From: Malacoraja senta
Taxonomy: Eukaryota
Length of the DNA stretch: 64,000 bases
Assembly (NCBI GenBank): GCA_038087875.1
Contig: CM075991.1
Coordinates: 6,324,001 to 6,388,000 of the forward strand
Direction of reading: 5' to 3'
In this document: positions 19,271 through 40,632 of the stretch, piece after piece
Position numbering within the stretch: the stretch's first letter is position 1
Layout: every line of letters starts with the position of its first letter
Notes under the pieces: model-generated
The model's database searches: none
What the model was told of the DNA's origin: nothing
The model's input: only the letters and a program-made list of their open reading frames with translations
Translations under genes and position numbers: made by a program

Positions 19271-19522
19271 TTGAACTCCTCCTCCTGAATCTTATTGTCA
19301 TTCTGTCCCGTATAGAGATTCTATACCGTGCCTGTTTAAGGGCTTGTCTAAATGCTCCTTAAATATGATGACTGTATCTGATTCCAACTCCTCTGGCAGC
19401 ATCTTCCAGATGTCAACCATTGTGTTTAAATCCCCTTTAAATGCTAAATCCCCATCTGTTCACCTTAAACTGCACTTTATATGCTTATTTATGTGTATAT
19501 ATATATATATTCAATGGTATAT

Positions 19523-20014
19523 ATCCCCACACCAAATCCTGGCACCACATCACCCCAGTTCTCAAAGAACTTCACTGGCTTTCCATTTCCCACCGGATCA
19601 CCTACAAAATCCTGGTCCTCACCTACAAAACCCTCAACAACCTGGCCCCCCCTTATCTCATTGACCTCCTCTCCCCCTACCAACCCTCACGGTCCCTCAG
19701 ATCCACATCAGCTGGTCTCCTCTCCACTCCGAAATCAAACCTCTGCACTTTTGGAGGCAGAGCCTTCTCCAGGGCAGCTCCCAGGCTCTGGAATTCCCTC
19801 CCACAACCGGTCCGAAATTCTGAGTCCCTCACCATCTTCCAGTCCCGCCTCAAGACCCATCTCTTCACCTCTGCATACCCTTAGTCCCATGTTCCCCTCC
19901 CCTCTGTCTTACTGCTCTATTTTGTTTTGTTTATTCCTGACTCTCAATTGTAAAGCGACTTTGAGACCTGAAAAGCGCTATATAAATAAAATCTATTATT
20001 ATTATTATTATTAT
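19523..20014 (+). mobile_element. L2-clade LINE 3' fragment with (TTA)n tail
   Basis: HITPVLKELHWL...LAPPYL...RAFSRAAPRLWNSLP...LKTHLF; flanked by TATAT on both sides. Confidence 0.85.
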
Positions 20015-20954
20015 TATATGGACACACTGATCTGTTCTGTATTATTCATGCCTGCAATATTCTGTTGTGCTGAAAGCAAAGCAAGAATTTCATTGTTCTA
20101 TCTGCGACACATGACAATAAACTCTCTTGGAAAGAGAAATCATTTGGATTTGGAAACCAATGCCCTCTTGTTTTTGATATGTCTACCATGGGGAAAAAGG
20201 CCGTCTACTCTGTCTATGCTTCTCATAACCTTATGTCTTCCATCAGTGCAAGCTATCCAATCTCTCCCCATAACAAACGTCCTCCAATCAAAGCAATAAC
20301 ATGGTGGAGATAGACATTTTAAATAACTCAGCACTCTCTCCAGCACAATCACTTCCTCTCCATAGTTTGGCGACCAGAACTGCACAAAATATTTGAAATG
20401 GAACCTTTTTTAAACTTTAGTTGATAACTTATCCCTTTCAATGAAGGTAGTGAAGAGAGTTTACAGGTACACCACTGATATAAGTCTTTGGATTCCTGGA
20501 TGACAGGAACAAGTAATTTGGCATTGATTGTATTTTCTCCAGTTGCATTTAAAAGTGGCAAGTCAAATGGCAAGTCAAATTTCACTACACCAATTGGTGT
20601 ATGTGATAATAAATGTCCTTTGTGTCCTTTGTATCCTTTGTAAGTGTTGGAGAATGGGAGTGGGTGATGTAAAAATGGGATCAGAGAGTCATGGAGGGAA
20701 TTGTCCCTCTGGATGATGTGATGGGGAGGAGAAGATATATCCGGTTGTTGTATCACCGTGGAGGCATTGGTAGTATCAAAGATGATCCACTGACTGCAGA
20801 AGCTGGTGAAGAAGGGGGTGGCGGTGGGGGTGGGGGTGGGGGTGGGGGTGGGAGTGGGGGAGCAGAGGAATCTGAAGTATGGGCATTGTTCTACTGTAAT
20901 GCATTCTTGATCTAATAATATTTACATGCAAGAATATTGAACATATAAATCATG

Positions 20955-21052
20955 CTAGGATTTAAGGAAGCCTCCTCTCAACCTCCCTCCCACCCACATT
21001 TAATTCCTTAATTAAGGAAGGGAGGTTGAGAGGAAGTTTCCTTAAATCCTGG
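20955..21052. repeat. ~100-bp foldback / tiny MITE-like element
   Basis: Arms AGGATTTAAGGAA.C.TCCTCTCAACCTCCCT and AGGGAGGTTGAGAGGA.G.TTCCTTAAATCCT. Confidence 0.65.
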
Positions 21053-21374
21053 GTCTACCATCTAACCACTCGCCTTCCATCTTTCATGTGCTTCTTATCC
21101 AACTCTCTCTGAAATGTATCTCCACTATTACTGAAACACTCCCTGAACTGTTCTCCCAGCACTATGTTCTCATCCACTGTCTTCCAAATATCCTATTTTA
21201 GTTTTTGGCAACTGTCATATCTTGATAATGATGTTGCAAAATAAACCTTAAAGGAGCGTCAACTTTGCTGTTAATTGAATTCTCTTTCATTTCATAAGAA
21301 CAAAACGAATTGGACTTTTTAATAATAGATAAAGCAATTGAGGCACTATTAAGTGTTGTCCAACAGTATAAATA

Positions 21375-22040
21375 TGAAGGTACACAAAAATGCTGGAGAA
21401 ACTCAGCGGGTGCAGCAGCATCTGTGGAGCGAAGGAAATAGGTAACGTTTCGGGCCGAAACCCTTCTTCAGACTGATAGGGGGTGGGGAGAAGAAAGGAA
21501 AAAAGGAAAAGGCGGAGGAGGAGCCCGAGGGCTGGGGGAGAGGAGGAGACAACCAGATGGCTGATGAAGGGGAGGGGACAGCCAGGGCTAGCAGAATTGG
21601 GAGAATTCAATGTTCAGGCCACCAGGATGTAGACTGCCCAAGCGGAATATGAGGTGCATTTCCTCCAATTTACGGTGTTGCTCGCTGTGGCCATGGAGGA
21701 GACCCAGGACAGAGAGGTCAGATACGGAATGGGAGGGGGAGTTGAAGTGCTGAGCCACCGGGAGTTCAGGTTGGTTATTGCGGACCGACCGGAGGTGTTC
21801 GGCGAAACGATCGCCAAGCCTCCGCTTGGTCTCACCGATGTAGATCAGCTGGCATCTAGAGCAGCGAATGCAATAGATGAGGTTGGAGGAGATGCAGGTG
21901 AACCTCTGTCGCACCTGGAACGACTGCTTGGGTCCTTGAATGGAGTGGAGGGGGGAGGTGAAGGGACAAGTGTTGCATCTCTTGCGGTTGCAAGGGAAAG
22001 TACCAGGGGAGGGGGTGGTATGGGAGGGAAGGGAAGAATT
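21375..22040 (-). mobile_element. Penelope-like element 3' part: GIY-YIG endonuclease fragment plus 3' UTR/pLTR
   Basis: ORF 21588..22091(-) contains CxxxxCxxC, NLIYCIRC..C..IYIGET.R.L..RF.EH and GLN.EF, typical of Penelope endonucleases; followed by the short terminal repeat unit. Confidence 0.88.
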
Positions 22041-24106
22041 AGTATAAATATGATTTAGGTTAAATACAGTATGGGTTTGGAATTTAAACATTTGAATAAA
22101 TGATCTTTAAAATATTGAAAGGCTAGCAATAGTCAACATAATCGATGGCCATCGGGAAAATGAAACAGGCTCTAGAAAAGGGATAACTTACATTTTTAAG
22201 AAAGGGTTCAGATATGAGGAAAATGTTTCCAAGTGATCACTAATAAATTCAATCGGAAATTCACAGTTAACTTTACACAGGGAATGCTTGAAATGTGGGA
22301 ATTACATTGAGGTAAAAAGATTTGAATTTCAGGAAGCAGGATACATTTTGTCAGGGAGAAAGAAAGAATCTGATGAAGGGTCTCGGCCCAAAACATCACC
22401 TATCATTGCTCTCCAAAGATCTTGCGTGACTCGTTGAGTTACTCCAGCTATTTGTGTCTTTTCGTGTACTCACCAGCATCTGCAGTTCCTTCTTTCTACA
22501 GAAGGAAATGTTGCTGGGCTGAGGTGTTCATGTACAAACTTAGGCATGGGTTTACTAGGCTGATTCTATGCTGTCAATACTCGGTAATGAAGTCCAGAGG
22601 TTTTTACTTTGACTACTGTTGGGATTTAGGACAAGTGCAAAGTACAGATTTGTAAAACATATTAAATTGGCTTATTTACCAAATTATTCCCCCTGATTGT
22701 GTGGTTGCAGATACATTGGAAATAGTTCAAAAATACTGACTGTATATATTGAACCCATGGTCATTGGAAACAGACACAAGTCTAGCAGCCTTGGAGCCAA
22801 CAATGAGCATTTCATGTCTGTTTTTGGCACTCTACCAAATGTTTCTGGCCAGATGGACATTGGATGTTTTAATGTTTACAGCAAAGTTTCACACAATGCC
22901 ACAACAAAGGAAAGTGTTAGAAATGGAAAATGGGCAACAAAAAATATGTTGTTCTTTCTGCAGAGGGAGGTGCAAAGATTACATCTCAGTATTGCATCTG
23001 AGGCTTCAAGTCACCAGTCGTTTTTGTCAGTGGAATTTGTATTGTCGAGCTCTCCACCACAGATGGAGTGATAAACTAAAGTTAAATGCAGCTGGTGCTC
23101 CGCACCAACTAATACAGTGGACCCTCCTTTTATTGAACGAAGATTATAGCAAACTGCAAAAATGAGGGCGGGAGCTTTCAATTTTGAAAGTGAGATGCTA
23201 AAAACAGAAACAGAACAGATCCATAGCTACAAGCAAGGGGTGGAAGATTGCAACCTTCACGTGGTCTGCCCTGTTTCGACGAATGCAATCAACCCGGCGT
23301 GCACAATCAAATAAGATCAAATAGAACAAGTTGTCCTTCAACTTTAGGCTGTGCAGGCAAGACGAAGAAGAAGAGGCCACAAGCAGCTAACTGAACCCTA
23401 TTTCATGAGTTTCAGGGGCTGGTAATGCAAGTTTGTTCTCATTGCCCACTTTCTTTCTCCCTCGCTGCCCCAACCAAGGTCAGCGTTGTCTCTGGTCCCC
23501 GTTGCGCTCCTTGGGCCCCTTGCAGCTGTTGGGCCTGGAGCACAATGGTAGAGATGACCGAGCAGAAACAAGCAACTGCAGATGCTGATTTACACGATTG
23601 CACACATGGTGCTGGAGTAGCTCAGTTGGTCACGCAGCATCTCTGGAGAACATGGAAAGGTGACGTTTTGGGTTGGGGGATTCTTCTCCAGATTCAGGTC
23701 CCTTGACTCGAAACGTCACCTGTCCATGTTCTCCAGAGATGTTGCCTGACTTACAATTTTACCTAAGCCAATAAATCTATAAACCTGTACGTCTTTGGAG
23801 TGTGGGAGAAAACCGGAGCACCCAGAGAAACTCATGTGGTCAGAGGGAGAACGGACGGAAATAGGAAGCATATAAAGTTAACGTCTAGTTTAGTTTAGTT
23901 TAGAAATACAGCGCGGAAACAGGTTCCCGGCCCAGCGAGTCCGTGCCAACCAGCGATCCCGGCACACTATCCTACACACTAGGGACAATCTACATTTTAC
24001 AGAAGCCAAATTATCCTACCAACCAACGTCGTCATGGGGAAATCGTACAAACTCCATACAGACAGAAACGTAGACAGGATTAAACCAAAGTCTCTGGCAC
24101 TGTGAA

Positions 24107-24327
24107 AGTCCTGTCCCACTTTCACGACTTAATTCACGACCTCTGCCGAGTTTGCCCTTGACTCATACTCGCAGCATGGTCGTAACGAGGTCGTAGGTAG
24201 GTCGTAGCAGACCGTGATGCTAGTCGTAGATACTCGTGTAGGTCGGGGCATGATGAAAAATGAAAATGAAAAATGTCCACGAGTAAAAAAGTTCGTGAAT
24301 TAGGTCGTGAAAGTGGGACGGGCCCTG
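24107..24327. mobile_element. Harbinger-like MITE, family A copy, inserted in an HE1-like SINE
   Basis: Same TIR and internal sequence. Confidence 0.75.
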
Positions 24328-24925
24328 AGGCAGCTGCTCTATCCATGCACCACTGTGCCATAGTTAGGGAAGGAATTCCACAGCTTAAGATTTTAGCAGC
24401 CAAAGGTCAAATCACAGAGATCTCAGAAGGGTGGGGTGGGGGGAGGTGATTACTAAGATGAAAGTGTGACACGGTGGAAACATTGGGGGACATGAAGTTT
24501 TTGAATGAAGATGTTTTTTTGATTGATTGTTCATCTTCACACAAAGTCTGTGGAATTCTCTGCCTCAGAAGGTGGTGGAGGCCGGTTCTCTGGATGCTTT
24601 CAAGACAGAGCTGGATAGGGCTCTTAAAGAGAGTGGAGTTAGGGGATATGGCGAGAAGGCAGGAACGGGGTACTGATTGTGGATGATCAGCCATGATCAT
24701 GTTGAATGGCGGTGCAGGCTCGAAGGGCCGAATGGCCTACGCCTGCACCTATTGTCTATCTTCTATTGTCTCAATGGATACATTTCGCTAATGTAAAAAT
24801 AGTAAAATGTAGGATTAAAGGAAGATCAAGGACATTTTTATCTAAAATCCTAATGACTGGGAAAAATTGATCAAACCCACTTACATCAATACTATCTTTG
24901 AGTGATCAAACCCACTTACATCAAA

Positions 24926-25252
24926 TCAAGTGAGTTTATTGTCATGTGTCCCTGATAGGACAATGAAATTCTTGCTTTGCTTCAGCACAACAGAACATAG
25001 TAGGCATTGACTACAAGGCATTCTATAAATATATACACACATGAATCAATATACTGATAAAGTGCAAATAACAGTTAATTGGCTAATAAAGTTCAGTGTT
25101 TTGTCCGAGCCAGGTTTAATAGCCTGATGGCTGTGGGGAAGTAGATATTCCTGAACCTGGTCGTTGCAGTCTTCAGGCTCCTGTACCTTCTACCTGAAGG
25201 TAGTAGGGAGATGAGTGTGTGGCCAGGATGGTGTGGGTCCTTGTTGATACTG
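24926..25252 (-). mobile_element. Rex1/Babar-type LINE 3' end, same family as the 28.7 kb copy
   Basis: Reverse complement of the 28790-29850 sequence without the L2 insert. Confidence 0.75.
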
Positions 25253-26978
25253 CATCAATACTATCTTTGAGTGATCAAACCCACTTACATCAAAACTATC
25301 TTTCGCACCATCAAAGTATGCAGAGTTTAAGAGTTCTGTTGCATTGCGCTGAATGAAACTTGACATAATCTCATATTCACTCATGGACACCACATCCTCT
25401 ACATACAAGTTGAGAGACCAGTTTTGAGCTGAGCCTCTAGGCACCTAAACCATGGGTCTTTGACTGTCGGAAATGTTTGCACAGAATGTAAGCTGTGATC
25501 CATGATCCCACCTACACATTGCTGCAGATGATTCAAACACTCAGGGGTGAACTGATTGCACCTCAACTGGTTTCTCACCCTTAATCAAATGTCGATGAGG
25601 TTCAACACAACTGTTGACCAAATATGGGTGGAGGCGCAGCGGTAGAGTTGCTGCCTCACAGCACCAGAGACCCAGTTCGATCCTGACCACGAGTGCTGTC
25701 TGTACGGAGTTTGTACGTTCTCCCTGTGACCGGGTGAACTAAACTAAAATAATATCTTGATCATCAAAATGCAAAAAATATATATCAAGAATAATGTCTT
25801 CAAAGTACTACAAGAAAAGTTGCAATTCAGTTTAGTTCATAAGTCATAGGAGAAGAATTAGGCCATTCGGCCCATCGAGTCTACTCCATCATTCAGTCAT
25901 GGCTGATCTATCTTTCCATCTCAACCCCATTCTCCTGCCTTCTCCGCATAACCTTTGTCACCCTTACTAAGCAAGAATCTGTCAATCTCCACTTTAAAAA
26001 TACCCAATGACTTGGTCTCCACAGCCGTCTGTGGCAATGAATTCCACAGAATCACCTCCCTCTGAATATAGAAATTCCTCCTTATCTCCTTTCTAAAGGT
26101 ATGCCCTAGACTAGGATTCTCCCACTAGTGGAAACAACCTCTCCACCCACTCTATCCAGGCCTTTCACTATTCGGTATGTTTCAATGAGGTTCCCCCTCA
26201 TCCTTCCAAACTCCAAGGAGTACAGGCTCAGAGCCGTCATACGTTTCAGAAGTCCCTGTGCTCACATTCTTTAGGGCATAAATGGCAAGGAAATTACTGA
26301 AGATAGATACAAAAAGCTGGAGTAACTCAGCGGGACAGGCAGCATCTCTGGAGAGAAGGAGTGGGTGACCTTTCGGGTCCAGACCCTTCTTCAGACTGTT
26401 GTGGGTTGCTGAATCCTCTGTTTTAGAGGTGCAAGAAATATAAACAACTCCATCGTGGCTTGGGCGTTGTTCAGACAAGCTGCACCCCCAATTGCTTAAA
26501 ACAGATGTTGGGCCCCTAACAGCCGTCAGGCTTAGAACACAATGATAGAGATGACATTGAGTCGAAACAAGGAACTGCAGATGCTGGTTTACACAAAAGG
26601 AGACTAGGCTTTGACCACGTAGGTCTGTGGGTTAATTTGGCTTCCGTAAATTGTAAATTGTCCCTAGTTTGTAGGATCGTGATAGTCTACGGAGATCGCT
26701 GGTTGGTACTGTCTCGGTGGGCCGAAGGACCTGTTTCCGTGTTGTATCTCCACAGTCTAAAATCTGGTCTAAAAGTCTAAAGTAAGCCTCCCTGCCTCTA
26801 CCTTCTTGAAGTTTTGTTGAAATTTTAAAATATTTTCTGGTTTTATTTCAGATTTTGAGCTCTTCTTTTGTTTTTGTTTCTTGCTGTTGTTGGAAATTAA
26901 TCTAGGCTATGTGTAGCCATAAAGTACATGAAACCTCAGACATGAGGAAGTATAAGCATGAATTAACATTGAGCGGCA

Positions 26979-28296
26979 AATCAAAAATAAATGGAGGTTT
27001 GGTTTTACCAAACTTTTTGTTTTATTTTTGGGCAGTTAACATTAAAAATATGAATTTTTGGTTGAAGAAATAGATCAACAACCAGATTGGTTAAAAATGG
27101 AAAAGGAAGATTGCTCACCTTTTGAAATCGGCTCGATACTATTTGCTACTTCTAAATTAAATTAAAAAATTTATAGGGAAAATCCGATAATATATAGTAC
27201 TATGCGAATTTGGAAACAATTAAAAAAGACATTAAAACTAGATAATTTATCACTTTTTCTTCCAATTGCGAATAACCCTTTGTTTAAGCCCTCATGGTTG
27301 GACAAAGGTTTCACACAATGGAAAAACTATGGAATTAAAAAGATGGGACACCTTTATAAGGAAGGCACTTTTCTTTCATTTCAGGAGTTGCAACAGATTT
27401 ATGGACTTCAAGTAAATGATTTTTTCAGATATCTCCAACTTAGAGATTACGTAAAAGCAAATACTCTAAATTTTAGAATTAGAAATTCAGACATTTTTGA
27501 CGACTGTTGGAATAAACATCCTAATACAGAAAAACTAATATCTTATATATATAATATTTTATTAGACAGCGATATCCCATTGACGGACTTACACAGACAA
27601 ACTTGGGAAAAAGAACTAAATCAAATAATAACGAAAGATACTTGGGAAGAAAGTTTACAACACATACATCAATGTTCATTAAATGCCAGACATTCTCTAA
27701 TACAATTCAAAGTAATACATAGGTTACATTATTCTAAAACAAAATTAAATAAAATCTTCCCACATATCTCACCAATATGTGATAAATGTCAACATTTAGA
27801 AGCTAACTTATCTCATATGTTTGCAAATTGCATAAAAATTAAAAATTTCTGGGTAAATATTTTCACAATAATATCTAAAGTGACTAGCATTCAATTGGAC
27901 CCGGATCCAAAATTGATAATACTTGGAACATTAGAACTAAATCAAACATTTACAACAACTCAAAGAAACTTTATTGATTATAGCATAATAACTAGGAAAA
28001 AATTAATTCTAAAATTTTGGAAAGGCCCTATAACCCCCACAATTAAAATGTGGATTATAGAAATGACGGAGACCTTACACTTGGAAAGAATTAGACTTGT
28101 CCTGTTGGACAAACAGGAACTATTCGTCGGAACATGGTCTCCCTTTATTGACTATTTAAAGGGTCAGAATGGTTCAGCACAGGAACCTGACTAACACCCG
28201 TGCCAAGGAATAGATGAAAGGTTATACTCTGAAATGTACGAATATATCTCGAATGAAGTTTTTTATCGTAGTAAATTATTCCATTCTTCTTTATTA

Positions 28297-28335
<39 letters not shown>

Positions 28336-28564
28336 GTTTTTTTGTGGTTTTTTTTTCTTGTTTCTTCTCTTTTCCCTCTTTCTTTCTTTATTTCATCTAT
28401 ATCTTTTTAGTTCTATTTAGTTTTTTAAAAAAAATTAAAAAAAGTATTGGAGACATTGTAATAATAATGGACAATATTTGTAATTTAAAAATGTAAGACT
28501 GGTATCGATTTTAATATGATATGTATCTACCTCCAATAAAAAATATCTTAAAAAAAAAAAAAAA
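26979..28564 (+). mobile_element. 5'-truncated L1/Tx1-clade LINE (ORF2 C-terminus, 3' UTR, poly-A)
   Basis: ORF 27202..28194 with zinc-knuckle-like C-terminal CDKC...HMFANC; AATAAA and poly-A at about 28535-28564; 14-bp TSD AACATTGAGCGGCA at 26965-26978 and 28565-28578. Confidence 0.88.
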
Positions 28565-28737
28565 AACATTGAGCGGCACAGTGGCACAGCTGGTAGAGCA
28601 ACTAAACTGAACATGGCGCCAGAGACCTGGGGTTCGATCCTGACCTCAAGTGCAGTCAGTTTACACGTTCTCCCTTTGACCGCGTGGATTCTCCCCCAGA
28701 TGATGTAGTTTCCTCCCGCATCTCAAAGATGTTTAGA

Positions 28738-29850
28738 TCACCATCGAGGTGGATCTATCGCAGTCGCTGCCTCAAAAAGGCTGGCAGTATCCTCAAGGAC
28801 CCACACCATCCTGGCCACACACACATCTCCCCGCTACCTTCAGGTAGAAGGTACAGGAGCCTGAAGACTGCAACGACCAGGTTCAGGAATAGCTACTTCC
28901 CCACAGCCATCAGGCTATTAAACTCGGCTCGGACAAAACTCTGAACATTAATAGCCCATTATCTGTTTATTTGCACTTTATCAATTTATTTATTCATGTG
29001 TGTATATATTTATATAATGGTATATAAAGGCAGCTGGCAAAGGTGAAGCCCATTCTTGAACGACAGCATTTTGAAACAGTAATCCATGCCTTCATCACGT
29101 CTCGGCTGGATTACTGTAACGCACTATATTTTGGAGTTAGCCAATCATCCCTTGCACATCTCCAGTTGGTTCAGAATGCTGCTGCTCGCCTTTTAACTGG
29201 AACACGTATGAGGGAGCACATAACGCCTATTCTGGCCTCCCTCCACTGGCTGCCTCCGTACTTTAGAGTTCATTTAAAGATTCTTTTATTTGTTTTTAAA
29301 TCTTTAAATGGTCTCGCCCCGCCTTACCTCTCTGAGCTGCTTCATCCCTACGCTCCCGCTCGGTGCCTCAGGTCAGCTGATCAGCTGCTCCTGGAGGTAC
29401 CGAGGTCTAAGCGGAAGCTCAGAGGGGATAGAGCCTTCTCTGTTGCTGCTCCGACATTATGGAACACTCTACCTTTGCACATTAGACAGGCCCCTTCACT
29501 GTCCATTTTCAAAACTAGTCTTAAAACCCTTTTCTATTCCTTGGCTTTTGACCCTGCATGAGACTTTGCTCCGGTTTTAGTGTTTCTATTGTTTTTTTTA
29601 TTGTTTTTACTGTCTTTAATGTTTTTACTGTTTTGTTTTATGTTTATGATTAGTCATGTACAGTACTTTGTTGCAACAGTGGTTGTTTTTAAAGTGCTCT
29701 TTAAATAAAGTTCAGTTCAGTTCAATATATGGACACACTGATCTGTTCTGTATTCATGCCTACTATGTTCTGTTGTGCTGAAGCAAAGCAAGAATTTCAT
29801 TGTCCTATCTGGGACACATGACAATAAACTCACTTGAATCTCTTGAATCT
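28738..29850 (+). mobile_element. Rex1/Babar-type LINE 3' end, interrupted by the L2 at 29026-29725
   Basis: RCLKKAGSILKDPHHPGH....LPSGRRYRSL...TTRFRNSYFP.AIRLLN; the 3' UTR resumes at GGACACACTG and ends ACATGACAATAAAC..CTTGAATC. Confidence 0.78.
29026..29725 (+). mobile_element. L2-clade LINE 3' fragment, different family, (GTTCA)n tail
   Basis: ORF 29043..29561: IHAFITSRLDYCNAL...LQLVQNAAARLL...HITPILASLHWLP. Confidence 0.87.
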
Positions 29851-30054
29851 TGAATTTTCAAGTTTGTAGTTTAATTGGTTTCTGTAAATTCCCCCTCGTG
29901 TACAGGACGTGAAAGTGGGATAATAAGCTAGTATGAACGGGCGATCGATATTCAGCGTGGACTCAGTGGGCCGAAGGGCCTGTTTCCGCGCTGTACCTCT
30001 AACATAAACTAAACATTTCCCTGAATCTTTCTGCCATCTGGTGCTTTTCAACAG

Positions 30055-30180
30055 GTTGCGGTGACCGAGATCGGATGGGGAACGTCCAGGACTCTCACAT
30101 GCTGATGGCCAATTCGCAGAGTGAAATGGAAGAATGGGTGAAAGCTATCCGTAGAACGATGGGAAATCTTTCCACTGGAG
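30055..30180 (+). CDS. ARHGAP25: ARHGAP25 exon 4, end of PH domain (CGDRDRMGNVQDSHMLMANSQSEMEEWVKAIRRTMGNLSTG)
   Basis: TTTTCAACAG acceptor; PH C-terminal helix EMEEWVKAIR; donor GAG|GTACCA; 126 nt. Confidence 0.92.
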
Positions 30181-31520
30181 GTACCATCATACACACAAAC
30201 GTTTCCTGAATTGCTGTTTATAACAGATTCTGGTTGTGAGAAAAATATCCTGCAAGTGATGCACATGAATGTTATTATGTGTGCATGCAATCATTTAGAC
30301 CATATTGCCTGTGTTGTAAGGGAGTTGCGGCAATGTCGATGGTACTCAATTTCAAGTGGGACTTCATACGGAGTTCATGTCCTCTATGGTGGAAAGTTCC
30401 CAAGCACTATTTGTAAAAGAGGACATTGGCTTGGGCAAGTTGGTCTGAAGGACCTGCTTCCCTGCCATATGACTCCCTGTTCTTTAGCAGAGTTGTCTAA
30501 AGCCACAAGGCATTGGTTAGAGTAAGGGGCAAGAGGTGTCGGAGGGATTTGAAGAGGAACACTTTTACTCGGAGAATGGTTGGAATCAGAACCAGAGACA
30601 TAGAGCATGGAAGCAGGCCATTCTGCCCTAAACATCCCTGCTGACCAGTGGGCAAGCATTCGTATTAATCCTATCTTGGAATTTGGATTGTGGTGTCTGT
30701 GTGGGGCAGAGATACTACTCTACCACATTTAAGAAGTATCCAGATGAACATTTGAATCAACATGACATTAAAAACTCCAGGCCAAACACAGATAATAGCG
30801 ATTAAAATAGATAGGAACATTGATGGTCAGCTTGGACATGGTATGGTATGGTACTTTATTTATCACGTGTACCAAGGTGCAGTGACATTTATTTTTGTAT
30901 ACAGTTCAGTACGTATCACTATACATAAGTATTTTGATACATATTAGACAAGCATCTCAGATACAGTCCACAGTGGTGGGCTGATGGGCTGACCCCAATA
31001 CTTTTATTCCAGACTAATGTAATACGTTTAAGTCAGATTTCCAGGCTGTTATCTCCAGCTCATGCCCAGCTCACCAGCCGTCACAGCGGGTCTCTTCCAC
31101 ATTGGATAACTCTCTTCAGAACATCTCCATTTAGTCCACAAAAATGTGTTTTATAACTTTCCCGTTTCCAATAAAGGATCATTGACCTGAAACATTCTTT
31201 CTCCAAACTTGCACCCCTGACCTTGTGAGTAATTCTAGCAACTTCTGTTTTTGTTTTAAATAACACGCCAGGCCTCTTGATTACTAGGATAGAAACTTAA
31301 TTCCTCCACTATTTCCTTTAAATAGCAACCACATAATATGCGAGGAAAGCGTTTTCATGAATCGTCCGATAAAAGACTTCTGCTATTTAATAATGTATTC
31401 AGCTCAAATGCCTGACCTGACCTGGTCTATCGTATGTTGAAATAACCAGTTTAGTTACCATTGTTCAACGTCTAGGGCTTGGTCACATTAAATGTTGAGA
31501 GTTTTCTAGCTTTACTCTTA

Positions 31521-39106: not shown

Positions 39107-39589
39107 TAAAGCAGTTAAAATGATCGTTTCAACATATGCCTAGTTCTGTCTGCATCCTCGGGATTCGTGTCATCATGTGAGCCCCACCAGTAGATTTTAG
39201 TTTAAATTTAGTTTGGAGATTAGTTTTTAGACTGGCTTGATCCTGTACCTCATTTATTTTGCAGTTTTCACTTGGTATTTCATATCTGATCGATATGAGT
39301 ATGTTGTTACTTGGGTCCCTAGTTTTACCTAAAGACCAAGCGAAAATTTCACAGGTATAAAACTCGGCAGTGAAATGACTCAAGATAGACATAAAGCGGT
39401 GGAGCAACTCAGCGGGTCAGGCAGCATCTCTGGAGAAACCCTTCTTCAGACTGAATGTAGAGGGGGGAGGGGAGGGAACTAGGGGTTGGAGAAAGTCAGA
39501 AGAAATTGGCTCATGGCAACAGATGACCAAGGAAGTGTGGGGTCCATAATGGGCCAACAAAAGATGACCAAGGAAGGGTGGAGTCCATA

Positions 39590-40130
39590 ATAATAATAAT
39601 AATACATTTTATTTATATAGCGCTTTTCAAGGACTCAAAGTCGCTTTACATTGAGAGTCAAAAAAAACCAAAGCAAAATAGAACAGTAAGACAGAGATGC
39701 AAAGGGGAGGGGGACATGGAACTAAGGGTATGCAGAGGTGAAGAGATGGGTCTTGAGGCGGGACTGGAGGATGGTGAGGGACTCAGAATTTCGGATCAGT
39801 TGTGGGAGGGAGTTCCAGAGCCTGGGAGCTGCCCTGGAGAAGGCTCTGTTTCCAAAAGTGCAGAGGTTGGATTTCGGAATGGAGAGGAGACCGGCTGATG
39901 TGGATCTGAGGGACCGTGAGGGTTGGTAGGGGGAGAGGAGGTCAGTGAGATAAGGGAGGGCCAAGTGGTTGAGGGCTTTGTTGGTGAGGACCAGGATTTT
40001 GTAGATGATCCGGTGGGAAATGGGAAGCCAGTGGAGTTCTTTGAGAACTGGGGTGATGTGGTGCCAGGATTTGGTGTGGGTGATGAGTCGGGCGGCTGCA
40101 TTCTGGACCAGTTGGAGTTGGTTGATGTTG
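39590..40130 (-). mobile_element. L2-clade LINE 3' fragment, same family as 19523-20014
   Basis: LQLVQNAAARLITHTKSWHHITPVLKELHWLP..., nearly the same peptide as the 19.5 kb copy. Confidence 0.85.
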
Positions 40131-40131
40131 G

Positions 40132-40516
40132 TGACCAAGGAGGGTGGGATCCATAATGGGCCAACAAAAGGACCAAGGAAGGGTGGGGTCCATAATGGGC
40201 CAACAAAAGATGACCAAGGAAGGGTGGGGTCCATAATGGGCCAGTACCAGATGACCAAGGAAGGGTGGAGTCCTAAATGGGCCAACAAAAGATGACCAAG
40301 GAAGGGTGGGGTCCATAATGGGCCAACAAAAGATGACCAAGGAAGGGTGGGGTCCATAATGGGCCAGTAACAGATGACCAAGGAAGGGTGGAGTCCTAAA
40401 TGGGCCAACAAAAGATGACCAAGGAAGGGTGGGGTCCATAATGGGCCAGCAACAGATGACCAAGGAAGGGTGGGGTCCATAATGGGCCAGCAACAGATGA
40501 ACAAGGAAGGGTGGAG
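40132..40516 (+). repeat. 41-bp minisatellite (GACCAAGGAAGGGTGGGGTCCATAATGGGCCAACAAAAGAT), about 9 units, plus about 2 units at 39520-39590
   Basis: GACCAAGG recurs at 40171, 40212, 40253 and 40294 (period 41). Confidence 0.92.
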
Positions 40517-40632
40517 GTCATTGAGCTGGAGAGGAGTAAGAATCACAGAGGAGGAGCAGTGAGAGTCTCGCAGAACTCTCGCCTAAGAAATGTCGCACAG
40601 TGAAATGACTCAACCTTTTTGTTTTGTGACAG

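Follow-up and report, generated by a model that had tools for sequence, protein, structure and literature searches.

The window, meaning the whole 64-kb stretch of DNA that was analysed, contains copies of a Rex1-like LINE, referred to here as the host, two of which (A and B) are interrupted by L2-type LINEs at the same base of the 3' UTR. The labels L2, CR1, Rex1, SINE and MITE are our own, assumed throughout from sequence features. The features concerned are the following.

19471..19522, plus strand: host copy A, 5' piece, a 5'-truncated Rex1-like 3' UTR that ends in the left TATAT (19518-19522)
19523..20014, plus strand: insert A, a 5'-truncated L2-type LINE with ORF2 C-terminus, 3' UTR and (TTA)n tail
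20015..20129, plus strand: remainder of the host A 3' UTR, beginning with the right TATAT (20015-20019)
24926..25253, minus strand: host copy C, from a common subfamily without the site segment
28741..29025, plus strand: host copy B, 5' piece, ORF C-terminus and 3' UTR, ending in the left TATAT (29021-29025)
29026..29725, plus strand: insert B, from a second L2-type family, with a (GTTCA)3 tail and one extra A
29726..29855, plus strand: remainder of the host B 3' UTR and its (CTTGAAT)n tail, beginning with the right TATAT (29726-29730)
39587..40131, minus strand: further copy from the family of insert A, lying in a tandem array of 41-bp units and outside the host

Both junctions, re-read from the window sequence, have the structure host-AATGG-TATAT-insert-TATAT-GGACACACTG, with a 5-bp TATAT duplication flanking insert A and insert B alike. 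A sequence-only reading had reported identical-base junctions of two different L2 inserts with TATAT on both sides, and its coordinates and duplications are confirmed here. At site A the exact nick is ambiguous by 1-3 nt, owing to tail/target overlap. The same reading took the two events to be independent, and this is upheld: pairwise comparison gives 51% identity between the insert peptides over 105 aa, and hosts A and B have indels typical of different subfamilies, unlike 5' truncation points and unrelated outer flanks. Because the hosts differ in these three respects, the four insertions are independent, and it is ruled out that one host was duplicated locally and its insert then replaced. 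Among the public contigs compared with sites A and B, no piece reaches across either site from unique flanks, whether filled or empty.

The L2 label of inserts A and B is one that we presume from the C-terminal motif and the 3' end; both inserts also carry the short-repeat 3' tail and the duplications of ~3-6 bp (range from PMC4245944) that serve as the criterion for L2-type elements. Longer genomic copies of the two families (L2-A and L2-B) are 52% identical over 452 aa, and identity between L2-A and the host RT is 28%. A long family-A copy (L226) encodes both an APE-type endonuclease and an RT (Exo_endo_phos and RVT_1); a family-B copy (L220), 5'-truncated in its locus, contains RVT_1 only. 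A Pfam search of the short window peptides other than that of insert A gave no match. Two family-A copies have stop-free frames of 1,169 and 1,018 codons (L174:579-4085 and L226:446-3499, both on the minus strand), which suggests recent activity of the family. The host encodes RVT_1 followed by PF09004, an order of domains common to nearly all of the 120 host homologues listed, the named ones being mostly from teleosts; none of these 120 matches is named Rex1, no clade is named by the homologue search, and PF09004 is what we take to link the host to Rex1.

Other features lie nearby. The 41-bp tandem array (~11 units, 39516-40519) is split by the family-A L2, whose tail joins at the ATTAT of a unit. 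An exon-like reading frame at 30057-30182 (plus strand) matches structure 1v89 of KIAA0053 (E 8.5e-8), presumably the PH domain of an ARHGAP25/22/24-type gene, and with such a frame close by, insertions A and B are likely intronic. A different LINE, which we assume to be L1/Tx1-like, has its 3' end at 27500-28194 (plus strand), where runs of T and of A come after a zinc-knuckle-like C-terminus.

The occupancy of the host site was estimated by pattern searches of the genome (1.94 Gb) with exact anchors, which miss diverged copies. Exact matches number 4,123 for the empty site and 5,841 for the right flank; just 76 of these right flanks lack the host GG immediately before them. These 76 broken right flanks are not 76 separate events. 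Judged by eye, 45 have one common junction, and the seven distinct places checked share their downstream flank, so that the 45 are one amplified event; another 18 are, from the listing, host substitutions or indels, and four break elsewhere in the host. Five more were omitted as possible 5'-truncated hosts, a search of 1-10 kb having shown no host flank on the left. The other four are single events with both flanks: A, B, an L2-tailed SINE (L167) and a CR1-like element (L184). Together with the amplified one, five events with both flanks and the TATAT duplication came from the right-flank search. A left-flank search gave 64 rows (12 in a reversed control), and among the 26 examined were two more CR1-like insertions (L361 and L366, the latter with a duplication of 3 bp). 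The site therefore holds at least seven two-flank insertions (two L2, one L2-tailed SINE, three CR1-like and one unclassified), or a fill rate of ~1e-3 per site as a lower bound, from seven events among ~5,800 host copies with the site; no insertion was detected at ~99.9% of host sites. The amplified filled host copy is found ~45-fold on small contigs (C62-C6138; L170, L187, L341, L085-L090) with shared flanks, in short (88 bp) and long (~3.2 kb) forms, and probably belongs to a large repeated segment.

Host copy C had been described as a third related copy that lacks the very segment in question. The absence is real, but it is a trait of the host subfamily: the junction of copy C has at least 2,703 exact matches genome-wide, representing a subfamily without ~25 bp of the 3' UTR that include the TATAT site. 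With a junction common to 2,703 copies, copy C is ruled out as an excision or deletion scar.

Identical junctions of two families, 10 kb apart, could mean that L2 endonucleases recognise the host sequence GGTATAT^GGACAC, that is, LINE-in-LINE targeting, and TATGGAC does occur at or within 6 bp of the junction in four of the five L2-type tails of the window, as was noticed post hoc. The other copies of the two families speak against this. Family-A 3' ends give at least 2,469 pattern matches genome-wide; among the 100 matches listed, none is at the site and two are elsewhere in Rex1-like UTRs. The family-B end pattern has 224 matches, again with none at the site among the 100 listed, and the 3' flanks of the listed copies of both families are diverse. 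The very low occupancy of the site is a further objection, as is its use by CR1-like elements as often as by L2-type ones, and the site-specificity that the sequence-only reading had suggested for L2 is not borne out. TATGGAC was also rejected as a target motif, since only two of the 100 listed (TTA)n-ATGG junctions continue in this way. Neither a majority of copies at one target nor an extended nick consensus, the criteria for a targeted non-LTR retrotransposon, is found. The genome-wide counts exclude L2 targeting of the host, LINE-in-LINE targeting is refuted as a family-wide property, and recognition of the host sequence is scarcely credible as the origin of the pair.

A short target preference is seen instead in the duplications of family A, surveyed in 68 non-redundant copies from 70 of the 100 listed places. 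Duplications of at least 5 bp, mostly 5-6 bp, were found in 20 of the 68, compared with 3.1 in shuffled pairs. They start with AT in 11 and with TA in three (14/20 AT/TA); as AT and TA together make up 12.9% of dinucleotides, this is a bias of ~5.4-fold, and these starts agree with the (TTA)n tail. A C precedes 15 of the 20, partly as an artefact of maximal extension. The signal in these 20 targets is confined to positions -1 to +2, and no AT-rich upstream signal was found in them. Family B has duplications of at least 5 bp in 5 of 29 copies (null 1.3), and their start motif is not clear.

The standing of the site within the host 3' UTR was assessed in the numbering of a natural host copy, in which the TATAT site is position 261. 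When (TTA)n tails were sought in the 130 bp upstream of a conserved anchor, 85 rows from 48 places were obtained, and 32 of the places were examined; judging by the listing, the other 16 seem to come from a more distant relative. A (TTA)n tail adjoins the host in sense orientation at ~24 places, with 10 (nine events) at positions 296-300 and the rest from ~190 to 320. None of these ~24 is at 261, the nearest being at 258-259; insertion A itself was missed through a substitution in the anchor. When the TATGT site at ~300, 39 bp downstream of 261, was searched without regard to family, 13 rows and six two-flank events were obtained for 5,322 anchors, statistically the same as five for 5,841 at site 261 (Fisher p=0.77). 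A control position starting with GG (266, 5 bp away) gave nine rows and no two-flank event (5 vs 0, p=0.06). The per-base background was taken from ~23.5 kb of host sequence whose choice did not depend on an insert, although 28 of its loci were chosen for an intact site; it contains two events, B excluded (95% interval 0.1-3.1e-4). Site 261 is thus used at ~10 times a rough per-base background, with wide error. A 5.4-fold bias multiplied by the two to three nick positions that read as the same TATAT junction would give an 11-16-fold excess, so that the known tail-target overlap roughly explains the ~10-fold one; because the background consists of two events, both the excess and its AT/TA explanation are only rough. 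Site 261 is a preferred insertion position, and to this extent the hotspot proposed by the earlier reading stands, with seven two-flank events against none at the GG control, while its targeting part is not supported by the listed L2 ends.

The preference for site 261 might instead be structural: the alternating (TG/TA)n tract upstream would deform the DNA and make it more cleavable for several CR1-group endonucleases than the short motif alone would. Several element types do reuse the same TATAT duplication, and a hairpin spans the tract in the predicted single-strand fold. However, the TATGT site is filled equally often without such a tract, and the 20 family-A targets are devoid of the AT-rich upstream signal. 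The fold itself is unremarkable (z = -1.35, with 22 of 200 shuffles folding equally well), and a hairpin at the site was rejected as not significant against shuffles. A structural origin is accordingly very unlikely.

Recurrence at one base is also found in other repeats. There are 191 (TTA)n-ATGG junctions in all, of which 100 were listed. Four of these 100 lie, antisense, at one base (C^ATGG) of a CR1-like 3' UTR (L373-L376); these are four independent L2-type insertions, with the host present on both sides in every case and with different inserts. Another three of the 100 are at one base of a MITE-like element, with both flanks in two of the three. The sequence-only reading had named in advance a generic TA preference as the finding that would speak against a targeted hotspot, and it is this preference that emerges from the equal use of the TATGT site and from the same-base recurrence in other repeats. 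Since both L2 families insert genome-wide and other AT-rich spots are reused equally, a generic short-motif preference combined with chance is likely. We therefore favour, with a probability of about 0.8, the explanation that the same base was reached because CR1-group elements ordinarily prefer short AT/TA targets, without recognition of the host. In such a process, the endonuclease would nick beside an AT step, the (UUA)n RNA tail would pair with 1-5 nt of the nicked strand and prime reverse transcription, and a second nick would be made ~5 bp away. A site present in ~6,000 host copies would then collect several insertions at one base, as a short motif preference multiplied by that number of copies implies.

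The closeness of A and B is a separate matter. For site 261, two filled copies within 64 kb are expected at 0.001-0.002, as scaled from the spacing of the first 100 host copies listed, and the GTTCA tail of insert B does not overlap TATAT at all, which leaves B unaccounted for by tail pairing. The 10-kb pair is likely a rare coincidence, picked among many families, sites and genomes, combined with local L2 density. The window might also be a local hot region, unusually open to, or tolerant of, germline L2-type insertion, which would be a regional and not a site effect. It holds five of the seven L2-type tails of a 464-kb stretch (6124001-6588000) of which it is 14%, and two exact L2-A ends compared with 0.59 expected for the whole 464 kb; regional hotspots with twice-used L1 sites are described for NF1 (PMC3219598). 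These counts are small, and the window was chosen for holding two of these tails. A regional effect on its own is unlikely, and it is compatible with generic target preference and not exclusive of it. A combined version, in which a germline L2 hot region is read through a short motif (pyrimidine-AT, here often TATGGAC) together with chromatin and unrelated L2 families converge on the same bases, is also quite improbable. If it were true, nested insertions would provide a base-resolution map of an undescribed C^AT L2 endonuclease signature.

Under the ordinary AT/TA preference favoured here, nested insertions offer a way to determine the short target bias of these L2 families. They also call for caution, since same-base insertions that recur in high-copy repeats are homoplasy for insertion markers. 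Had L2 truly targeted another LINE, a clade held to be non-specific would have gained a new site-specific branch; no targeted L2 element is reported by title or abstract in the literature searched, the coverage of which is incomplete.

Sequence-specific elements are known from R2, R1 and the Tx1 group (e.g. Tx1L in Tx1D), in which most copies are in the target. The insertions described here resemble them in lying at one base of a multicopy target but differ in that none of the 200 listed L2 copies is in it. A closer likeness is offered by L1-endonuclease sites used twice independently (PMC3219598), where in NF1, APC, F9 and BTK different subfamilies likewise inserted at an identical base, some of them in a regional cluster. 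Those cases are alleles at human single-copy loci, whereas here the targets are paralogous repeat copies, so the chance of recurrence is multiplied by thousands. The CR1-group classification, and the coverage of Rex1 in rays, which is among the highest, are given in PMC13343379. The closest match is the vertebrate L2/CR1-clade signature, as set out in two papers: ZfL2-1 duplicates 5 bp of its target, and L2 and CR1 most often duplicate 3-5 bp (PMC4245944); in CR1, L2 and RTE, one to several bp at the 3' end coincide with the target, and the tail repeat is correlated with the base at which the duplication starts (PMC6007223). The window insertions share its duplications of ~5 bp, 5' truncation and tail-target overlap, and nothing essential differs from the signature as given there, apart from insert B having one extra base and no overlap. 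The pair is real and consists of ordinary nested insertions, and the short target bias of CR1-group LINEs that probably underlies it was already known.
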